Below, piece by piece: positions 32,659-63,065 of a stretch of DNA of 64,000 nt (position 1 is the stretch's first letter; every line of letters begins with the position of its first letter). Below the pieces are notes generated by a model, which searched no databases, had not been told where the DNA came from, and saw nothing but the letters and a program-made list of their open reading frames with translations. Location: sequence record MN655998.1. One strand, given 5' to 3'. The translations under genes were made by a program, and so were the position numbers. Source of the stretch: Escherichia phage E26.

Positions 32659-33900
32659 ATGACTCATATTTTTACTGAACTGTTGCGGGAATCTACTTCC
32701 TCAGTAGCTAACCAGACAGCGCGACCGCAACTATTATCATTAACTCGCGCGGTAAACAACCTGATTTTCTCTGATCTGGTAGCAATCCAGCCAACGGATC
32801 AACCAGTATCTGCATTGTACGGCCTACGTTATCTTAATCGTGATGGTCAGATGACTTTCCGAACTGCTACAACCTACGGTGGCGCGGCTGGTGATCGCAC
32901 AGAGATTGAAGAGTTTTCAAAAGAAAAATCTTATGACGAAGGCGCACTGTTCAAATCAGACGATGTTGTATACGAAGTTGTGACCGCTGGTACAGTCGGT
33001 GAAGATGCCGAAACTCCAGAAGCTGCAATCTTTAAAGGCGTAATGACAAACAAAATTCGTTTCTATAGCGATTGTGCATCGGTAGAATACTTTGAAGATA
33101 AAAACACCGAAATTTCGTCTACCTCTATGCAGTTTGATAAATGGCAGGTTAATGTAGGTTCTCGTAAACTGAAAACCTCATTCACGACCGAATTGATGCA
33201 GGATCTTGAGGCAAGCCAAATCAACTCTGAAAACTCTGTAATTGATCTTCTGGCTACGATCGCTTCCGAAGAGATCAACAAAGATATTATTCAGAAGTTG
33301 ATCACTGTATCATCTCGCTATAAAATTAAAGGGATCACCCCTGACGGCGTACTTTCTCTCGTTAGCGTTCAGGATGCACCAGCACAAGCGCGTGAACTTT
33401 ACCGCTATGCTTGCGAAATGAGCAATCAAATGTTGCGGACTTCCTCCTTTGCTGGTACATACGTTTTGGCGTCTTCTCGCGTGGTTGGCCTCCTGCAATC
33501 TTCCGGTTGGATGGAAGAAACCGACAATGCTCTAAGCGAAGGTCGTCTACGTTGCGGTCTGGAAGTGTACGCAGACACGACAACACCTTTCGATTATATG
33601 CTCGTTGGTTGTAAGCACATGATCGGTGATATGGAGAGTGTAGGTTCTCTGTTCTACTCCCCATATACAGAAGCCGACGGCGCTGGCGCGTATAAGAGTG
33701 TAATTGACCCTAATAGCTTCCAGCATCATGTAGCTATTATGAATCGTTATTCACTCTCTGTCAACCCATATACATCAAAAGTTGATCAGGAAGAACACCA
33801 GGTCATCAAGGGTGACGATTGGGGTAAAATGGCTGGACGCTCTGAAATGTCCTACATTTTAGGAATCGAACTGCCACCGCTTGAGATTGACAACGCTTAA
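32659..33900 (+). CDS. 24: head vertex protein gp24
   Basis: 413 aa; gp23-paralog features, size and position as T4 gp24. Confidence 0.9.
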   Translation: MTHIFTELLRESTSSVANQTARPQLLSLTRAVNNLIFSDLVAIQPTDQPVSALYGLRYLNRDGQMTFRTATTYGGAAGDRTEIEEFSKEKSYDEGALFKSDDVVYEVVTAGTVGEDAETPEAAIFKGVMTNKIRFYSDCASVEYFEDKNTEISSTSMQFDKWQVNVGSRKLKTSFTTELMQDLEASQINSENSVIDLLATIASEEINKDIIQKLITVSSRYKIKGITPDGVLSLVSVQDAPAQARELYRYACEMSNQMLRTSSFAGTYVLASSRVVGLLQSSGWMEETDNALSEGRLRCGLEVYADTTTPFDYMLVGCKHMIGDMESVGSLFYSPYTEADGAGAYKSVIDPNSFQHHVAIMNRYSLSVNPYTSKVDQEEHQVIKGDDWGKMAGRSEMSYILGIELPPLEIDNA

Positions 33901-34488
33901 CTAAATATCTAACCAAGACAAGTCAGATCCGCCCAAGATTTTTTCGACGGCGGATCTATTTTCTTGATGATATAAGTTAAAACATGGTATCCCATGTCTA
34001 CGGGCAACATAAACAGCAATTCTAGTTCCTCCCGAAACGATTCCATTAACTTCTTTCGCCCAGAATATCACACAATCTACAGGATCATCAAGTGTCTCAC
34101 CTAAGACTTGAGCAACATTTCTAGAAAACAGATTTTGCATGTATAACGGTATAGAACGAGGATTATCATAAACGTGTTCTAATTCATCCATCGCCAGATT
34201 TTTTTGTTCTAAGGTTTGCCATGCAATCACATCATGACCGTTATGCTTGTGGTCATAAAACTTCCAATTTGGAATGAAAATTTTTCTATAATCTGGATCG
34301 TAATACTTCATGAAAGCATTGTCCATACCGTAAGCCCCTCCAGAATGCGCTACAACGCGATTTTCTGACAATACCCTCCCAATGGTACTAGCCATTATCA
34401 AAATGTCGCTAGGCGCTTTTCTAGAGCCTATTAAAGCACATCTACGAAGTGGTTTTACTCCAAATAGATCTTGTAACTGGTCAAACAT
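33901..34488 (-). CDS. DprA/Smf-like (SLOG-type Rossmann fold) protein
   Basis: 195 aa; ALIGSRKAP...VVAHSGGAYGMDNAF fits the GSR / SGxAxGxD pattern of DprA-type domains; GGAGG RBS. Confidence 0.45.
   Translation of the reverse strand: MFDQLQDLFGVKPLRRCALIGSRKAPSDILIMASTIGRVLSENRVVAHSGGAYGMDNAFMKYYDPDYRKIFIPNWKFYDHKHNGHDVIAWQTLEQKNLAMDELEHVYDNPRSIPLYMQNLFSRNVAQVLGETLDDPVDCVIFWAKEVNGIVSGGTRIAVYVARRHGIPCFNLYHQENRSAVEKILGGSDLSWLDI
33925..33965 (+). terminator. terminator-like hairpin for gene 24, lying inside the 3' end of the convergent gene
   Basis: AGATCCGCC / GGCGGATCT 9-bp stem followed by ATTTTCTT. Confidence 0.45.
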
Positions 34489-34641
34489 AATATTTCCTCC
34501 ATAGAAAGCAATATCATACTACAAGTTAATAACAAATACAAGTATCCGCGTAGCGGAAGCGAGCACAGCGAGCAATAAAACACTTCCAGTAATTGATTAA
34601 TAAATGTTCGAAACAAATTTTTATTATTCTATAAGATAAGT

Positions 34642-34666
34642 CTTCGTTTTGATCATAATTTAATCA
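34642..34666 (+). repeat. direct repeat copy 1 (CTTCGTTTTGATCATAATTTAATCA)
   Basis: 25-nt exact copy; flanking bases also similar. Confidence 0.7.
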
Positions 34667-34791
34667 TACATGTAAAAAACTACACAAAAGGATATCGCTT
34701 CGCGAACTCCTACGGAGTATAACATTTGTGTTACAATATGTAGTGATTAATAATTAACCAAAGATACATTTTCTATGTTCTAAAGATCTTT

Positions 34792-34816
34792 CTTCGTTTT
34801 GATCATAATTTAATCA
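34792..34816 (+). repeat. direct repeat copy 2 (CTTCGTTTTGATCATAATTTAATCA)
   Basis: identical 25-mer 150 bp downstream of copy 1. Confidence 0.7.
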
Positions 34817-34868
34817 AACAGTATTAATATTGTGCACATGTAAACTAAAATTATGTTAATAACATATA

Positions 34869-34894
34869 CAAAAAAGCCGCCCCGAAGGACGGCT
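34869..34894 (-). terminator. rho-independent terminator (UUCG tetraloop) after the 145-aa gene
   Basis: minus strand AGCCGUCC-UUCG-GGGCGGCU then U-run. Confidence 0.65.
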
Positions 34895-34902
34895 AATGTT
34901 AA

Positions 34903-35340
34903 TTATTTGTTGATAACGATCTGATTTCGGCGAATGGTAACATTACTCTTAGAGATGATCAGATCATCCGGCACTACGTTAGTTTTGTATGGCTGGAAGC
35001 GAACAAGCATCTGATTGCGTTTAGACCCTTCCTTAATCTTGATTTCCATCTGGATATTGTTGCCTACGTGAGCAACCGCAATTTCACCTTTATTCTCATA
35101 GACCAACTTGCTGGTAACGTCTCCTGCAAAAGCCTTAATAACTTGCAATGCTTCGTCGTATGCGGTAGAGCTGTGAACTTTCAGAAGGCCAGCCGTAGCA
35201 AGACGGGAGCAAGTGATCGCCGGAGATTGCCAAACATCAACATTAATTTGCTCAATCAGAGTAACACCGCCCTGATCAACTGCTTTGAATGCTTCAAACA
35301 TTGCCTTTTTCATTGCTACGTGGTTTTTACGGAATTTCAT
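34903..35340 (-). CDS. hypothetical protein
   Basis: 145-aa ORF with GAGGTGA RBS; no recognisable motif. Confidence 0.55.
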   Translation of the reverse strand: MKFRKNHVAMKKAMFEAFKAVDQGGVTLIEQINVDVWQSPAITCSRLATAGLLKVHSSTAYDEALQVIKAFAGDVTSKLVYENKGEIAVAHVGNNIQMEIKIKEGSKRNQMLVRFQPYKTNVVPDDLIISKSNVTIRRNQIVINK

Positions 35341-35386: not shown

Positions 35387-35662
35387 TCAGGACATTGCCC
35401 GTTTGAATGCGTCCATTATAACAGTGTTATTTGGCTTGTCAACACGTTTTTGAACTTTATTTTTAAATTTTTTGTTGATGTGGTGTTTACGATAAACAAC
35501 CTTTTCACGGTTGGCGTAAGCCTCGCGTGCGTCTTTTACCATCAACCATGCCTTAGCCGCATCTTGTCCGCTGATCCCGCCAATCTTCTTAGCAATATCA
35601 ACAAAATTAAGACCGTGGTCTTCGCGTAGCATGTAAACCATTAACGCTGTTTTCTTGTCCAT
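35387..35662 (-). CDS. hypothetical protein (91 aa), possible HTH
   Basis: ATG overlaps the upstream TGA (ATGA); ORF-track start at 35770 has no RBS. Confidence 0.5.
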   Translation of the reverse strand: MDKKTALMVYMLREDHGLNFVDIAKKIGGISGQDAAKAWLMVKDAREAYANREKVVYRKHHINKKFKNKVQKRVDKPNNTVIMDAFKRAMS

Positions 35663-35859
35663 CACTTCGCCCCATTGACGATTAACAGGATAGTGATCAG
35701 TACCGGAAACTGGATCATGACAGTACCAAAAAACCGGATAAACGCATTTTCCGACTTCCACACATGACATGCGACTAGCTGATAGACCATTGTTGCAACC
35801 AAAGCCAGAAAATACATCTCGATTGGTGCTTCTTTGATCAATCGTACAATCTCATTCAT
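35662..35859 (-). CDS. small hydrophobic (membrane) protein
   Basis: 65 aa with one or two predicted transmembrane stretches. Confidence 0.45.
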   Translation of the reverse strand: MNEIVRLIKEAPIEMYFLALVATMVYQLVACHVWKSENAFIRFFGTVMIQFPVLITILLIVNGAK

Positions 35860-36023: not shown

Positions 36024-36049
36024 CAAAAAAGCCACCCCGAAGGATGGCT
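36024..36049 (-). terminator. rho-independent terminator after hoc (paralog of 34869..34894)
   Basis: minus strand AGCCAUCC-UUCG-GGGUGGCU then UUUUUU. Confidence 0.65.
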
Positions 36050-36060
36050 GATAGATTTCA

Positions 36061-37275
36061 TTAAGCAGGATGCGTTTCACGAATGCATAGAACTCGCTCT
36101 AACGTATCTCGGTCCAGTTTATGTAAATCTTTGGAATGATACATGAAACCATTGCGAGATTCCATGCAAGTGCAATCACTATATTTTTCTTCCGCTGCCG
36201 CGATTGTCTCCAGATCTTTGGCGTACTTGCTGGTAGAATAAACTTCTCGGTCACGCCACTCTAACCCAGCCTCATTGAATTTAACAATCTCGTCAAATAC
36301 CCACCATCCAATGTAGATAAATGAAGTTTTGCGCCACGGGATCGGGTGTACGTAACGAAACATTTTAACAACTTCCATTGAACATTTTCTACTTGTACTT
36401 GTTGCAACTTCTACTGTTTCATTTTCGATCTGTTGATATAGTTTAGCAACACACCAGAATTTGGCTGTGTCATCGTAAGTAGCACTCTCTTTGAACAGAT
36501 GACCGTCTGGAGTGATAGAAAATCCTTCCTGTGCTTCGCCGACCTCATTACCGATCAGAGTCGGTGACAGTTGCCCTTCGCGCTGCAAATACCAGTTATG
36601 TTTGATCGTCAATTCAGGCATACCGCTAGAATCGCCTACAATGTCCTCTGACACAACATAATTAAGTAAGATCTCATTACCTAGTGCCACGGTCTTTGAT
36701 TCCACCACATCCTGTTCTACGTTCATTGTTGCCAGCATGATTTTAGTCGATGCGCTATTGGCTGAATCTTCCGACTCACCCCACACTTTTACAGTATACA
36801 CGCCGTTTTTATCTGCTGTAAATTTTTGGATTGTAATATCCTGTTTTGTGTCTATAACTTCTTCGCCCTTACTCCAACTATAATGTAGTTCATAGTTGTC
36901 TGATGGAGTCTTCCCACCAGAAAAATTTACTGTTGCATGTAATTCTACGTCTGTTTGTGATGATACGTAGAAATGCTGCGGTTCGGTGATATTTACGATT
37001 AATTCCGCTTCTTCCATGAGGAAAACTTCAGATTCTACTGATGTCGTCGTATCGGTATCTTGTACCGTTACTTTATAGCTACCCGCATTTTCACTTGTTG
37101 CGCCTTCTACAGTTAGCGTAGCTGTGTTATTTTCATGCGGTTGGTCGTCTTTTGTCCATGTATATGTCAAATTGCTGGGTAATGGTTCGTCACCCTCTAC
37201 AGTCGCCGTTAAGGTGAAACCATCGCCAGCAAGAAAACATCTTTTGTCAGATTTAATTGATACTGTGAAAGCCAT
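36061..37275 (-). CDS. hoc: outer capsid decoration protein Hoc
   Basis: 404 aa; Ig-like domain repeats plus C-terminal capsid-binding motif (YVHPIPWRK..GWWVFDEI..ESRNGF) as T4 Hoc. Confidence 0.85.
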   Translation of the reverse strand: MAFTVSIKSDKRCFLAGDGFTLTATVEGDEPLPSNLTYTWTKDDQPHENNTATLTVEGATSENAGSYKVTVQDTDTTTSVESEVFLMEEAELIVNITEPQHFYVSSQTDVELHATVNFSGGKTPSDNYELHYSWSKGEEVIDTKQDITIQKFTADKNGVYTVKVWGESEDSANSASTKIMLATMNVEQDVVESKTVALGNEILLNYVVSEDIVGDSSGMPELTIKHNWYLQREGQLSPTLIGNEVGEAQEGFSITPDGHLFKESATYDDTAKFWCVAKLYQQIENETVEVATSTSRKCSMEVVKMFRYVHPIPWRKTSFIYIGWWVFDEIVKFNEAGLEWRDREVYSTSKYAKDLETIAAAEEKYSDCTCMESRNGFMYHSKDLHKLDRDTLERVLCIRETHPA

Positions 37276-59422: not shown

Positions 59423-59896
59423 TTACTCCTTATTTTCGCGCTCGTACTTTTCGAAATAAAATTCTACTGGCTGGTCATTAATTGACAGCAAGCCAAAGCG
59501 TTTAGCCGCTCGCAATCCCATATTGCGCTGAATGTACTTCTGGAAGTTCTCGCGTATACACTTACGCCAGTATTCTAAGCCCATACAGCTTTTATAAAGA
59601 TTGCATTGCACACACGCCGGATTCATGTTATCAAGTATATCATGTTCCGGTTTATGCATTCCTACAACCTTATACTTCCACGATCCATCATCATTACGGG
59701 CAATTCGTCCATTTTCATCATAGACTACCTTTGAGCGTCGCAATACTGGTTTGATGTGGTCTGCGTGCCAGCGATCCCCTAGTTCCTCGCCACAATAGGC
59801 ACAACGTCCACCATATTTCATTTTCAGGATCTGGCGTTGCTCTTTCTTTGACAATTTTTTAGGTTTAGGGGCTTTTGCCCCTTCATTATCACACAT
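59423..59896 (-). CDS. small HNH endonuclease
   Basis: 157 aa; HNH core CAYCGEEL..WHADHIKPV..NMNPACVQCN. Confidence 0.65.
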   Translation of the reverse strand: MCDNEGAKAPKPKKLSKKEQRQILKMKYGGRCAYCGEELGDRWHADHIKPVLRRSKVVYDENGRIARNDDGSWKYKVVGMHKPEHDILDNMNPACVQCNLYKSCMGLEYWRKCIRENFQKYIQRNMGLRAAKRFGLLSINDQPVEFYFEKYERENKE

Positions 59897-61385
59897 CGAA
59901 TACCTCTTTTACTGTATTTGCAGTGGTCTTGTCGTAGCGAATACGTTTGATGATTGGGAGAAATAAAGAGAACTCCGGTTCATCTTCTTTACGTGATTTG
60001 CTGCGGATATACCCGTTGCATGTCATCTCAATGACTTTTCCAATCAGGTTATGACGATCAGCCCATAACATTTCTCGGTCGAGTTCATTTCTACGATCGA
60101 ACGGAATTACACGTTCAATACCATCATCACCTTTTTCGGTTGTAGTGTCGGTTAATCCAGATCCGGTGTTAGTCATCATTCGTCCGCACGCACTACGGAC
60201 AGTAAAACCGCCTACCTTATTGGGGTCTTTACTATGCGGATATACATCAACAATTTCCGCGTCGAAGTCAATCACTTCTTTAAATTTAACCTGATCTTTA
60301 CTACGGCGATCTTCAAATACACCATGTAAATTTTTAAGGATAATACCTTCTAAGCCCATGTTTACATAGCGATGATATACTTCGCGAGCTTCGTCTATAT
60401 TGTTAACTACAGTGTTTTCGATTATCTGAACACGAGGATCGTTAAGTTCTTCAACAATCTGTTTTAGTTCTTCGAATCGATCTTTATATTGCTTCGTTGC
60501 TTTCTCGTTTCCGTAATACACATCACGGTCGATAACATCCCAGACAGTGTAAACAATACATTGGGCTTCTTCTTTTGGAATAGTTCCTTTCAGTGATTTG
60601 TTGAGGATACCATTTCCGGTCTGACGATCTGCAACAACGGATTCTTTTACTGCTTCCGCTACTGGAGTTAATGGCATTTCCTCTTCTTCAAATATCCATG
60701 ACAGAGTACCATCATAAACGCTCTCAACGAAGTTCTGCGCTGGTGTTTGTGAAAGGGTAGGCATATATACCAATTCGCCATCTAGAACAATTCCACGGCC
60801 TCGTAGACGCTCTAAAACCGCAAACAAATCATCAAGCCCTTGATAGGTATTACCTGAGCGGGTATAGATTGCTAATGTTTCCCCGTCAATATCAGCCATA
60901 CCACGAGCGCCATCGCTTTTAAGTTGTGCATACGCCGGATATTTGATATTGGCAATAGTCTTATCAGAACATGACGATGCAAGGTGGCACGGTTGCTGAG
61001 GAATCAGTTTCTTCCATACCTTGTTTGCAGTGGTAGCGGAACAGCCGCATTCCAGATCACGATTCAGGACCATCATCGCAACTTTAGCATCATCCTCTGA
61101 CAAGCAAGTCAGAGTATCGGTAACTAGCTGTAATGCTGCATTACCAGTTACTTGACGCGTGGCAAGTTTATTTTTAAAGACCTGTAATGCACCGGATAAA
61201 GACAATACAGACGAATAGCGAGATGGTTTATCGTATTTCTTTACGCCAAACGTAACCTGTTTGCAATATGCCAGATAAAAGCATTCTTTCAGCGTTTCAT
61301 TGCTCGCGGATTCTTTCAGGATCTTTTCTTTCAGCGATGTTTTGTCGGTTGCTGCAAGCTGATTAATGATATTAAGAATTGACAT
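59889..61385 (-). CDS. 30: ATP-dependent DNA ligase gp30
   Basis: 498 aa from ATG (MSIL); adenylation motif KSDG (AYAQLKSDGARG); EGIILKN, FLPI..R..DK; ORF-track start at 61391 is GTG. Confidence 0.95.
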   Translation of the reverse strand: MSILNIINQLAATDKTSLKEKILKESASNETLKECFYLAYCKQVTFGVKKYDKPSRYSSVLSLSGALQVFKNKLATRQVTGNAALQLVTDTLTCLSEDDAKVAMMVLNRDLECGCSATTANKVWKKLIPQQPCHLASSCSDKTIANIKYPAYAQLKSDGARGMADIDGETLAIYTRSGNTYQGLDDLFAVLERLRGRGIVLDGELVYMPTLSQTPAQNFVESVYDGTLSWIFEEEEMPLTPVAEAVKESVVADRQTGNGILNKSLKGTIPKEEAQCIVYTVWDVIDRDVYYGNEKATKQYKDRFEELKQIVEELNDPRVQIIENTVVNNIDEAREVYHRYVNMGLEGIILKNLHGVFEDRRSKDQVKFKEVIDFDAEIVDVYPHSKDPNKVGGFTVRSACGRMMTNTGSGLTDTTTEKGDDGIERVIPFDRRNELDREMLWADRHNLIGKVIEMTCNGYIRSKSRKEDEPEFSLFLPIIKRIRYDKTTANTVKEVFDV

Positions 61386-61851
61386 TTTCACCTCGTTTTG
61401 TTAAACGTTCACGAATATCATTGAGGATACTACAAAATTCCGATTCAGTCAATATAGTCTTTAACGGATCAGTTCCACCTATACTATGACGTAATTTCTT
61501 ATTTCCGGTCGAGAGTAATGCTTTACAAAATTCTGGGTTATTCCGTGCCATCGTAACAAATGCCAGATGTACCAGTCTGTAATAATGCTCACTCATTCGA
61601 TGAATCGGGCGACCCTGAAAATATAACATGTGATTCTCAATCTTTTCAGTTCTTCCGGTTCTTTTTGCTTTGCCACCATGCATCAAAAAGATTTCTCTTT
61701 GTCTCTGAGGGTTCTTAAATCTTAGCCCCTGTAAAAATCCTTCTGTGCTGTTAATATCGCAACCAAATAGACGGAATGGTCTTTTATTGAAATTACTCAA
61801 TTCACCAGATGGATAAGGTCCACCCGCATAGATATCAATTTCAGAAGTCAT
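61372..61851 (-). CDS. NADAR (YbiA-like, DUF1768) domain protein
   Basis: 159 aa; GELSNF...STEGFLQGLRF and HSIGGTD..L.....ILNDIRERL fit the YbiA/NADAR pattern. Confidence 0.5.
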   Translation of the reverse strand: MTSEIDIYAGGPYPSGELSNFNKRPFRLFGCDINSTEGFLQGLRFKNPQRQREIFLMHGGKAKRTGRTEKIENHMLYFQGRPIHRMSEHYYRLVHLAFVTMARNNPEFCKALLSTGNKKLRHSIGGTDPLKTILTESEFCSILNDIRERLTKRGENVNS

Positions 61852-62447: not shown

Positions 62448-63065
62448 TTATTTATATTTCGCGACCTTTGGATTTCTCCGCAGACCGGAATGTATTTGCG
62501 CTATACAACAATAAGAAACATTAAACATATCAGCTATAATTTGCTTCTTAACTTTTCCTTTAAGCCGCATTATTTCTTCGACTTGCGCATTTGTCAGTTT
62601 TGCCCGTGAGTGGTTTTCACCGACATTGTTATTGAGTCCAGTTCTAAATGAATGTCTCATATTTTCTAGTAAGGTTACTATTTCTAGATTCCACACATAA
62701 TTGCAGGTTTTTACACCATTGATGTGATTAACCTCAAGTCCGGTAACGTCTCCTAGAAATGCATTTGCTACAAGTCGATGTATCTTTTCGGCTTTAACTG
62801 AGATTTTACCATTGTCTTTTTGTTTTGACAATGTTGAATAATAATATCCATATCGGTCTAAAATTGGTTTTATTATTTTACCAGCACGTTTTTGTTTTAC
62901 GAGCTTAATATTACCGGGAGAAACTTCTCTATAAAATTCGATACTTCGGTCAATAGATCTCAATCTACCATAATTAGAGATTTCATACCACGGATAACCT
63001 ACAGCTTGTCTCCATTCTTCCGGCGCTGGTAATACGATATTATCATCTTTTGTTTCCATTGTCAA
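62448..63065 (-). CDS. HNH homing endonuclease (NUMOD4 + HNH type)
   Basis: 205 aa; WYEISNYGRLRS (NUMOD4-like) and VNHINGVKTCNYVWNLE (HNH) motifs. Confidence 0.75.
   Translation of the reverse strand: MTMETKDDNIVLPAPEEWRQAVGYPWYEISNYGRLRSIDRSIEFYREVSPGNIKLVKQKRAGKIIKPILDRYGYYYSTLSKQKDNGKISVKAEKIHRLVANAFLGDVTGLEVNHINGVKTCNYVWNLEIVTLLENMRHSFRTGLNNNVGENHSRAKLTNAQVEEIMRLKGKVKKQIIADMFNVSYCCIAQIHSGLRRNPKVAKYK

Follow-up and report, generated by a model that had tools for sequence, protein, structure and literature searches.

Two signatures, G-S/T/A-R and F/L/Y-x-x-R-N/D, mark the DprA proteins that bind single-stranded DNA (ssDNA), as described by Wang et al. (PMC3950713). In the Helicobacter pylori protein (HpDprA), Arg52 opens the base pocket, and Phe140, Arg143, and Asn144 hold the inserted base (PMC3950713). 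A GxD/E motif has been described for the YpsA clade of SLOG proteins (PMC6459960), and Iyer, Burroughs, Anantharaman, and Aravind (2022, Viruses 14:1977) regard the viral SLOG domains as mainly "YpsA-like". The same authors describe viral SLOGs that are fused to Macro, NADAR, and DUF4326 domains, and propose that these proteins bind or cleave ADP-ribose derivatives of host immunity. NADARs strip ADP-ribose from guanine in DNA, and gp30.3 (AdfN) of phage T4 counters the DarTG1 defense. For DruSM1 ORF83, a phage protein labeled "DprA/Smf", activity against AVAST III has been reported in a preprint, and a nucleotide N-glycosidase (phosphoribohydrolase) function has been proposed computationally for this anti-Avs3 protein. 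PeSL cassettes, which consist of a stem-loop and an AT-rich early promoter, flank shuffled accessory ORFs in phages RB49 and phi1 (PMC2839356). Here we compare with these systems a DprA-like gene found in a stretch of 64,000 nucleotides from Escherichia phage E26 (MN655998.1), which we refer to as the window.

Results and Discussion

The DprA-like gene occupies positions 33901–34488 on the minus strand and encodes a protein of 195 amino acids from an ATG start (GenBank AAQ15400.1, UniProt Q7Y3M6). A Shine-Dalgarno sequence, GGAGG, can be read directly at 34496–34500 (minus), 7 nt 5' of the ATG at 34486–34488. Gene 24 (32659–33900, plus; 413 aa), a capsid vertex protein by reference to the 99%-identical phage JSE, ends immediately next to the stop codon of the DprA-like gene; the two genes are convergent, as an earlier note on the sequence had described, and abut tail to tail. 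The window belongs to a Krischvirus, and the 3 kb around the DprA-like gene is 99.1% identical to JSE and 90–99% identical to 57 other matching records. The protein is 100% identical in RB49, the ORF is kept in 58 Krischvirus genomes, and the phrog_768 profile is matched over its full length (E = 1.2e-60, 205 bits, residues 15–187 aligned to profile positions 4–181 of 191), which together argue that the region is more than a chance reading frame. T4 has rnlB, 24.2, and 24.3 in the corresponding slot, in agreement with the RNA ligase 2 and small ORFs that the note had placed there. In Moonvirus CF1, rnlB and a homologue of the DprA-like gene form a pair next to gene 24.

Other minus-strand genes lie close by. 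The ORF at 35387–35770 contains a DUF2774 domain (E = 9e-29) and corresponds to JSE "gp24.3", where the annotation begins at a later start codon (276 nt). A 145-aa ORF (34903–35340) that separates this ORF from the DprA-like gene matches nothing in Pfam and is closed by a clean intrinsic terminator at 34875–34894. A Hoc-like head decoration protein with several Ig/PKD-type domains is encoded at 36061–37275, and its gene also ends in a hairpin, AGCCATCCTTCGGGGTGGCT (36030–36049), nearly identical to the one at 34875–34894.

A G+C-rich hairpin is located at 33925–33957 (plus), within the last 19 codons of the minus-strand DprA-like CDS. Its stem of 9 bp (33925–33933 paired with 33949–33957) encloses a loop of 15 nt and is followed by ATTTTCTT. 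Folded with its surroundings (81 nt), the element reaches a minimum free energy of −26.1 kcal/mol (z = −5.5), and none of 200 shuffled sequences folds as well. The hairpin is absent from the list returned by a terminator scanner that considers loops of 3–8 nt, probably because its loop exceeds that limit. The position and the folding bear out the hairpin that the note had seen here, and to call it terminator-like, for gene 24, is fair but unproven. The codons that it overlaps encode a poorly conserved C-terminal tail, in which the pLDDT is 77 and then 56 over the last two 10-residue blocks; the hairpin DNA therefore probably constrains this stretch more than protein function does.

On the other side of the gene, the 414-nt intergenic region 5' of the CDS (34489–34902, minus) is 95–99.5% conserved in all 58 Krischvirus records. 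It contains two minus-strand hairpins, at 34875–34894 and 34545–34557, each followed by TTGTAT[A/T]TGTTATTAAC, as well as two 38-nt direct repeats (34633–34670 and 34783–34820), and parts of it match at about four places per genome. A search of Rfam returned no family for the region (best E = 0.16, far below gathering), and a promoter scanner found no σ70 consensus promoter directly 5' of the DprA-like gene, TTGTAT-17-TATGAT being only a weak match. The hairpins and the promoter-like motif that follows each resemble PeSL cassettes, here in tandem arrangement. By analogy, these cassettes would be the probable source of early transcription of the DprA-like CDS, and early, cassette-driven expression of the gene is plausible.

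The AlphaFold2 model of the protein, built from 32 sequences, is confident (pLDDT 93.9, pTM 0.89) and shows a three-layer α/β fold that superposes on solved SLOG members, so that the check by structure prediction suggested in the note comes out in favor of its assignment. The two motifs that had been pointed out are present in the translation, ALIGSRKAP at residues 18–26 and VVAHSGGAYGMD at residues 45–56. The pocket residues are G21-S22-R23, S49-G50-G51-A52-x-G54-x-D56, L120-x-x-R123-N124, Q127, and G153-G154-T155. In an alignment of 111 diverse relatives, G21, R23, G50, D56, R123, G153, G154, and T155 are invariant, while S22, P26, S49, A52, G54, P73, N124, Q127, G130, A158, A162, and N171 are conserved at ≥90%. 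The polar and glycine residues that follow strand 1 in SLOG proteins and their GxD/E-type motif behind strand 3 are in place, S22, S49, A52, and G54 being conserved at 90–99%. Both DprA signatures are found in the same alignment. The first is G21-S22-R23, in which G and R are invariant and S is conserved at 90%, and the second is L120-F-S-R123-N124 (L in 80%, with F in 12%; R in 100%; N in 95%). The motifs are collinear with those of E. coli Smf, namely GSR 114–116, SGLARGID 142–149, FPRRN 208–212, and SGS 231–233.

The resemblance to DprA at the level of sequence profiles was detected in the N-terminal part of the protein. The score against PF02481 is 22.3 bits (cut-off 29.6), over residues 15–60 only, and that against TIGR00732 is 14.4 (cut-off 191). 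PF02481 matches 80 of the 111 relatives at E < 0.01 (best 8.3e-7), the query itself lying below the gathering score. A sequence search of the PDB with the single protein retrieves only HpDprA (E ∼0.7), and the search with the family profile gives 2.9e-4 over the N-terminal 49 positions only. With hhalign, the probability is 22% for the family against E. coli Smf alone and 47% against 15 enterobacterial DprAs, the latter over the N-terminal ∼62 columns only and with a shallow DprA profile (members at ≥70% identity); neither comparison establishes homology across the whole Rossmann domain. A Pfam scan finds no other domain in the protein, which has neither a SAM domain nor a winged helix (PF17782). 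The location of GSR at residue 21, as opposed to 50 in H. pylori and 114 in E. coli, shows that the N-terminal strands, which mediate dimerization in HpDprA, and the SAM domain are absent. By structure and by sequence, the closest proteins are DprA proteins and not ThsA or YpsA. The DprA/SLOG assignment of the earlier note thus holds at the level of fold and superfamily, through the phrog_768 match, the model, and the motifs, but it does not extend to the DprA family proper, whose cut-offs the protein does not reach. Since it falls below the DprA thresholds and lacks the LOG motif discussed below, we place the protein in a distinct, DprA-proximal SLOG family.

The label "DprA-like DNA recombination-mediator protein" is already attached to this exact protein in GenBank/RefSeq, in RB49, JSE, KFS-EC, and others. 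The homology and the contextual link to ADP-ribose are likewise already in databases and the literature, and for this window nothing is added beyond the existing annotation. The phrog_768 family is present in 1354 of 50,697 phage records (∼2.7%), from phages of Klebsiella, Pseudomonas, Escherichia, Aeromonas, Vibrio, Acinetobacter, and other hosts. An exhaustive profile search yielded 4319 clusters at 50% identity, 2731 of them with E ≤ 1e-10, and the proteins are mostly stand-alone and ∼180 aa long. The family is also carried by 23 alphaproteobacterial and betaproteobacterial plasmids, 12 of which are conjugative. A literature search found no experimental work on any phrog_768 family member. 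Two entries of the 90% cluster bear other names: the member from phage Skers is listed as a "putative RNA ligase", a name that was probably transferred by position from T4 rnlB, and a 98-aa fragment is called "DNA-protecting protein DprA, partial [Bacillus atrophaeus]", which is probably phage contamination.

The domains to which the family is fused point to ADP-ribose. NADAR is the fusion partner in five of the best 150 representatives, of which three have two domains and two, of ∼1480 aa, contain YAcAr and SLOG-cluster-4 domains as well; DUF4326 and RecJ (DHH-DHHA1-OB) are each the partner in one. The architectures reported by Iyer et al. (2022) are recovered, including NADAR-SLOG (P0070, P0146, P0176), DUF4326-SLOG (P0160), SLOG-Macro (plasmid protein WP_115418205), and giant multi-SLOG proteins with NADAR; the SLOG-Macro fusions are two plasmid proteins. 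At one plasmid locus (L091, 5821–7068), a 415-aa SLOG-Macro fusion is encoded beside ImmA/IrrE, SocA antitoxin-like, and RNase H genes, and at another (L092, 6007–6519) an SRAP peptidase (abasic-site ssDNA) and DUF736 are encoded in the vicinity of a family member. In loci from IMG/VR, the domain also occurs inside ORFs of 1269–3056 aa. These long ORFs, of 1269 aa (L029, 2319–6128), 2505 aa (L037, 114–7631), 1446 aa (L073/L074, 2643–6983), and 3056 aa (L081, 51–9221), are reminiscent of the "polyvalent proteins" known from phages and conjugative elements, and Pfam returned nothing informative on them except a weak AlkB-like 2OG-oxygenase match in one.

In the gene neighborhoods, the order is Prs-NAMPT-Macro-x-x-DprA-like in Pakpunavirus and Rnl2-HNH-DprA-like in Slopekvirus, with NAMPT 1.3 kb beyond. 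An iterated search of 80 IMG/VR loci, collapsed to 42 groups, found in 13 groups a gene for Macro, DUF4326, or NADAR at a distance of up to 5 kb, a count that has no matched control; Pfam confirmed 7 of 12 for Macro (10 candidates and 2 annotated controls), 3 of 3 for DUF4326, and 1 of 1 for NADAR, which leaves at least ∼8 groups. For comparison, a Macro homologue can be detected at any position in only 5.9% of phage genomes. In a Pfam survey of the two flanking genes on each side in 39 dereplicated viral loci, no universal or consistent partner was found; an ADP-ribose-related neighbor is absent in two thirds or more of the loci surveyed, and two metagenomic contexts of family members were uninformative. 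The proximity of Macro, NADAR, and DUF4326 genes may reflect the clustering of accessory or counter-defense genes in hyperplastic regions.

A NADAR gene of the gp30.3/AdfN type (PF08010, E = 6.5e-38; ADP-ribosyl-guanine DNA glycohydrolase family) is present in the window at 61372–61851 (minus), immediately upstream of an ATP-dependent DNA ligase gene (59889–61391, minus), and a search of the 64 kb for Macro and DUF4326 genes gave none. Also in this part of the window, a 205-aa ORF with NUMOD4 and HNH_3 domains (62448–63065, minus) encodes a putative homing endonuclease. The NADAR fusions seen elsewhere suggest gp30.3/AdfN as a candidate functional partner of the DprA-like protein. Because domains that are fused elsewhere are both encoded separately in RB49, the relation is a hint of the Rosetta-stone type and not proof. 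The two genes are 27 kb apart in RB49, and since T4 uses AdfN with no DprA-like protein, the two are not obligate partners.

On the basis of these observations, we tentatively favor a role for the DprA-like protein as a noncatalytic, ssDNA- or nucleotide-binding accessory factor that helps to protect or repair phage DNA against ADP-ribosylating defenses. A single-stranded nucleic acid would be gripped in the manner of DprA, with one base or nucleotide inserted into the pocket formed by G-S-R 21–23, SGGAxGxD 49–56, LxxRN 120–124, and GGT 153–155. Made early from its own cassette, the protein would shield ssDNA intermediates of the phage, or present damaged ones, notably those whose bases host toxins of the DarT type have ADP-ribosylated, to enzymes that remove ADP-ribose. 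These enzymes would be the NADAR, Macro, and DUF4326 proteins that other viruses and plasmids encode either as fusions with the domain or next to it, and in RB49 the candidate would be the separately encoded NADAR gp30.3/AdfN. This reading covers the DprA-like motifs, the association with NADAR and Macro (DNA de-ADP-ribosylases) and with DUF4326 (whose function is predicted), and both the RecJ fusion and the weak AlkB-like one. Against it we count the slightly acidic character of the RB49 protein (pI 6.4, net charge −1.9, where the family median pI is 8.4), the 27-kb distance, the use of AdfN alone in T4, and the lack of a consistent partner. Furthermore, conservation of the motifs does not separate ssDNA from a small ligand, since the same SLOG pocket elsewhere binds AMP, ADPR, and 3'cADPR.

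The latter point leads to the reading in which the pocket sponges or cleaves soluble NAD+- or ADP-ribose-derived signals or toxins, such as the cADPR isomers of Thoeris, which we consider possible although somewhat doubtful. Such a role has been predicted in print for the SLOG domains of viruses, Iyer et al. (2022) having interpreted the Macro and NADAR fusions as processing soluble ADPr derivatives, and with SLOG pockets that bind free nucleotides and NAD-salvage genes nearby it accounts for the data nearly as well as the preferred reading. The nearest relatives, however, are DprA and not ThsA or YpsA, both motifs of the DprA ssDNA pocket are kept, the RecJ fusion and the weak AlkB-like match point to nucleic acid, and NADAR is now known to be a DNA de-ADP-ribosylase. 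A catalytic Glu of the LOG type is also missing. Where PGGxGTxxE (PF03641) would stand in a LOG protein, the sequence is V-S-G-G-T-R-I-A, and by motif register Ala158 (95%) takes the place of the Glu; a search for LOG by sequence gave no Pfam match and one PDB LOG, which is marginal (E = 0.15). With the motif absent and a conserved Ala in place of the catalytic residue, a LOG-type hydrolytic mechanism is unlikely. For the same reasons, we consider it very unlikely that the protein hydrolyzes AMP or a modified nucleotide in the manner of a LOG-like nucleotide N-glycosidase (phosphoribohydrolase), the activity proposed for ORF83. The acidic residue that follows GGT in such enzymes (Glu in LOG, Asp in ORF83) is the conserved Ala here, and ORF83 itself seemingly belongs to another SLOG family. 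As its likely equivalent we used gp80 of phage Seurat (130 aa, YAcAr/DUF2493; L090, 3656–4048), probably the counterpart of ORF83 in Seuratvirus, because the positions of the R-N and G-T-M-D motifs in gp80 agree with the residue numbering published for ORF83. This gp80 matches PF10686, to which neither the DprA-like protein nor its 111 relatives show a match; a phrog_768-type profile has no match in the genome of Seurat, the hhalign probability for the family and gp80 is 4%, and the BFVD TM-scores are ∼0.41–0.46 for gp80 versus 0.58–0.80 for the 19 top-ranked BFVD matches. Judged by this YAcAr-type stand-in, we reject the placement of ORF83 in the same family as the DprA-like protein. ORF83 provides the only experimental hint that such proteins act in counter-defense, and as such sets a precedent for phage SLOGs that stand alone; it is not evidence on phrog_768.

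The name in the databases implies a true DprA-like recombination mediator or ssDNA protector, which would coat ssDNA, help to load UvsX or host RecA, and supplement UvsY. In its favor, the best match by structure is DprA, the motifs for ssDNA are kept, a fusion to RecJ exists in one relative, and uvsW and uvsY belong to the segment of the genome that holds the gene. We nevertheless judge this role unlikely, given that the protein is below the DprA family cut-offs with profile homology detected over the N-terminal ∼62 columns only, and that it lacks the dimerization strands of HpDprA as well as a SAM domain and a C-terminal winged helix. Moreover, the phage already has UvsY, T4 recombines with no DprA-like protein, and the fusions are mostly to ADPr-hydrolase domains and not to recombinases. 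The suggestion in the earlier note of an unexpected mediator in a phage with UvsX/UvsY-type recombination is not supported. Least probable of all, to our mind, is an antitoxin mimic of ShosA/PsyrA that keeps ShosT/PsyrT silent during infection. PADLOC does report matches to ShosA and PsyrA (E = 4e-5 and 3.5e-4), but these cover only residues 15–61, the generic GSR...SGxAxGxD region, and ShosA depends on two elements that are absent here, its SAM domain and a dimer helix, to be stable and functional. The family is also far wider than the known hosts of ShosTA/PsyrTA, and there is no contextual link: no toxin gene lies beside the DprA-like gene, whose neighbors are gene 24 and small ORFs.

The name "recombination mediator" is carried by ∼2.7% of phage genomes, by some conjugative plasmids, and by some giant-virus-like polyproteins. 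If the family acts in the ADP-ribose arms race, whether by protecting or repairing ssDNA or by neutralizing NAD signals, this annotation misleads, and the family would be a candidate counter-defense module that matters for the host range of phages and for phage therapy. A more far-reaching view, which we regard as doubtful, is that phrog_768 constitutes a widespread, unrecognized class of counter-defense proteins that read ADP-ribosylated or damaged bases in ssDNA by means of a DprA-type base-insertion pocket and shield them or hand them to NADAR or Macro enzymes, in RB49 together with gp30.3. Were this true, it would supply the "additional phage protein" that has been invoked for AdfN working only in its own phage background.

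Comparison with Known Systems

Within phrog_768, the DprA-like protein is a typical member and shows no difference; the name of the family was itself inferred from homology. The fused SLOGs of Iyer et al. (2022) differ from the RB49 domain in that the latter stands alone, and while those authors classify viral SLOGs mainly as "YpsA-like", the nearest solved relative here is DprA. Identity to the DprA-like protein is 8% for YpsA and 11–16% for LOG phosphoribohydrolases and the ThsA SLOG sensor; the DprA-like protein has neither SIR2 nor another effector domain. ShosA is distinguished by its SAM domain, its C-terminal dimer helix, and a toxin partner, and the protein described here has neither of these domains. 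With ORF83 and the YAcAr proteins it shares the character of a small, stand-alone phage SLOG labeled "DprA/Smf" by annotation pipelines and the analogous GxR, GxD, RN, and GT motifs; Seurat gp80, in contrast, is shorter and keeps the acidic residue after GT. Finally, bacterial DprA/Smf (PF02481; 3MAJ, 4LJK/4LJR, 3UQZ) has an extended-Rossmann N-terminal extension that the DprA-like protein lacks, and the SGS of DprA/Smf, spaced 19 residues from RN, is replaced by GGT at a spacing of 28 residues.
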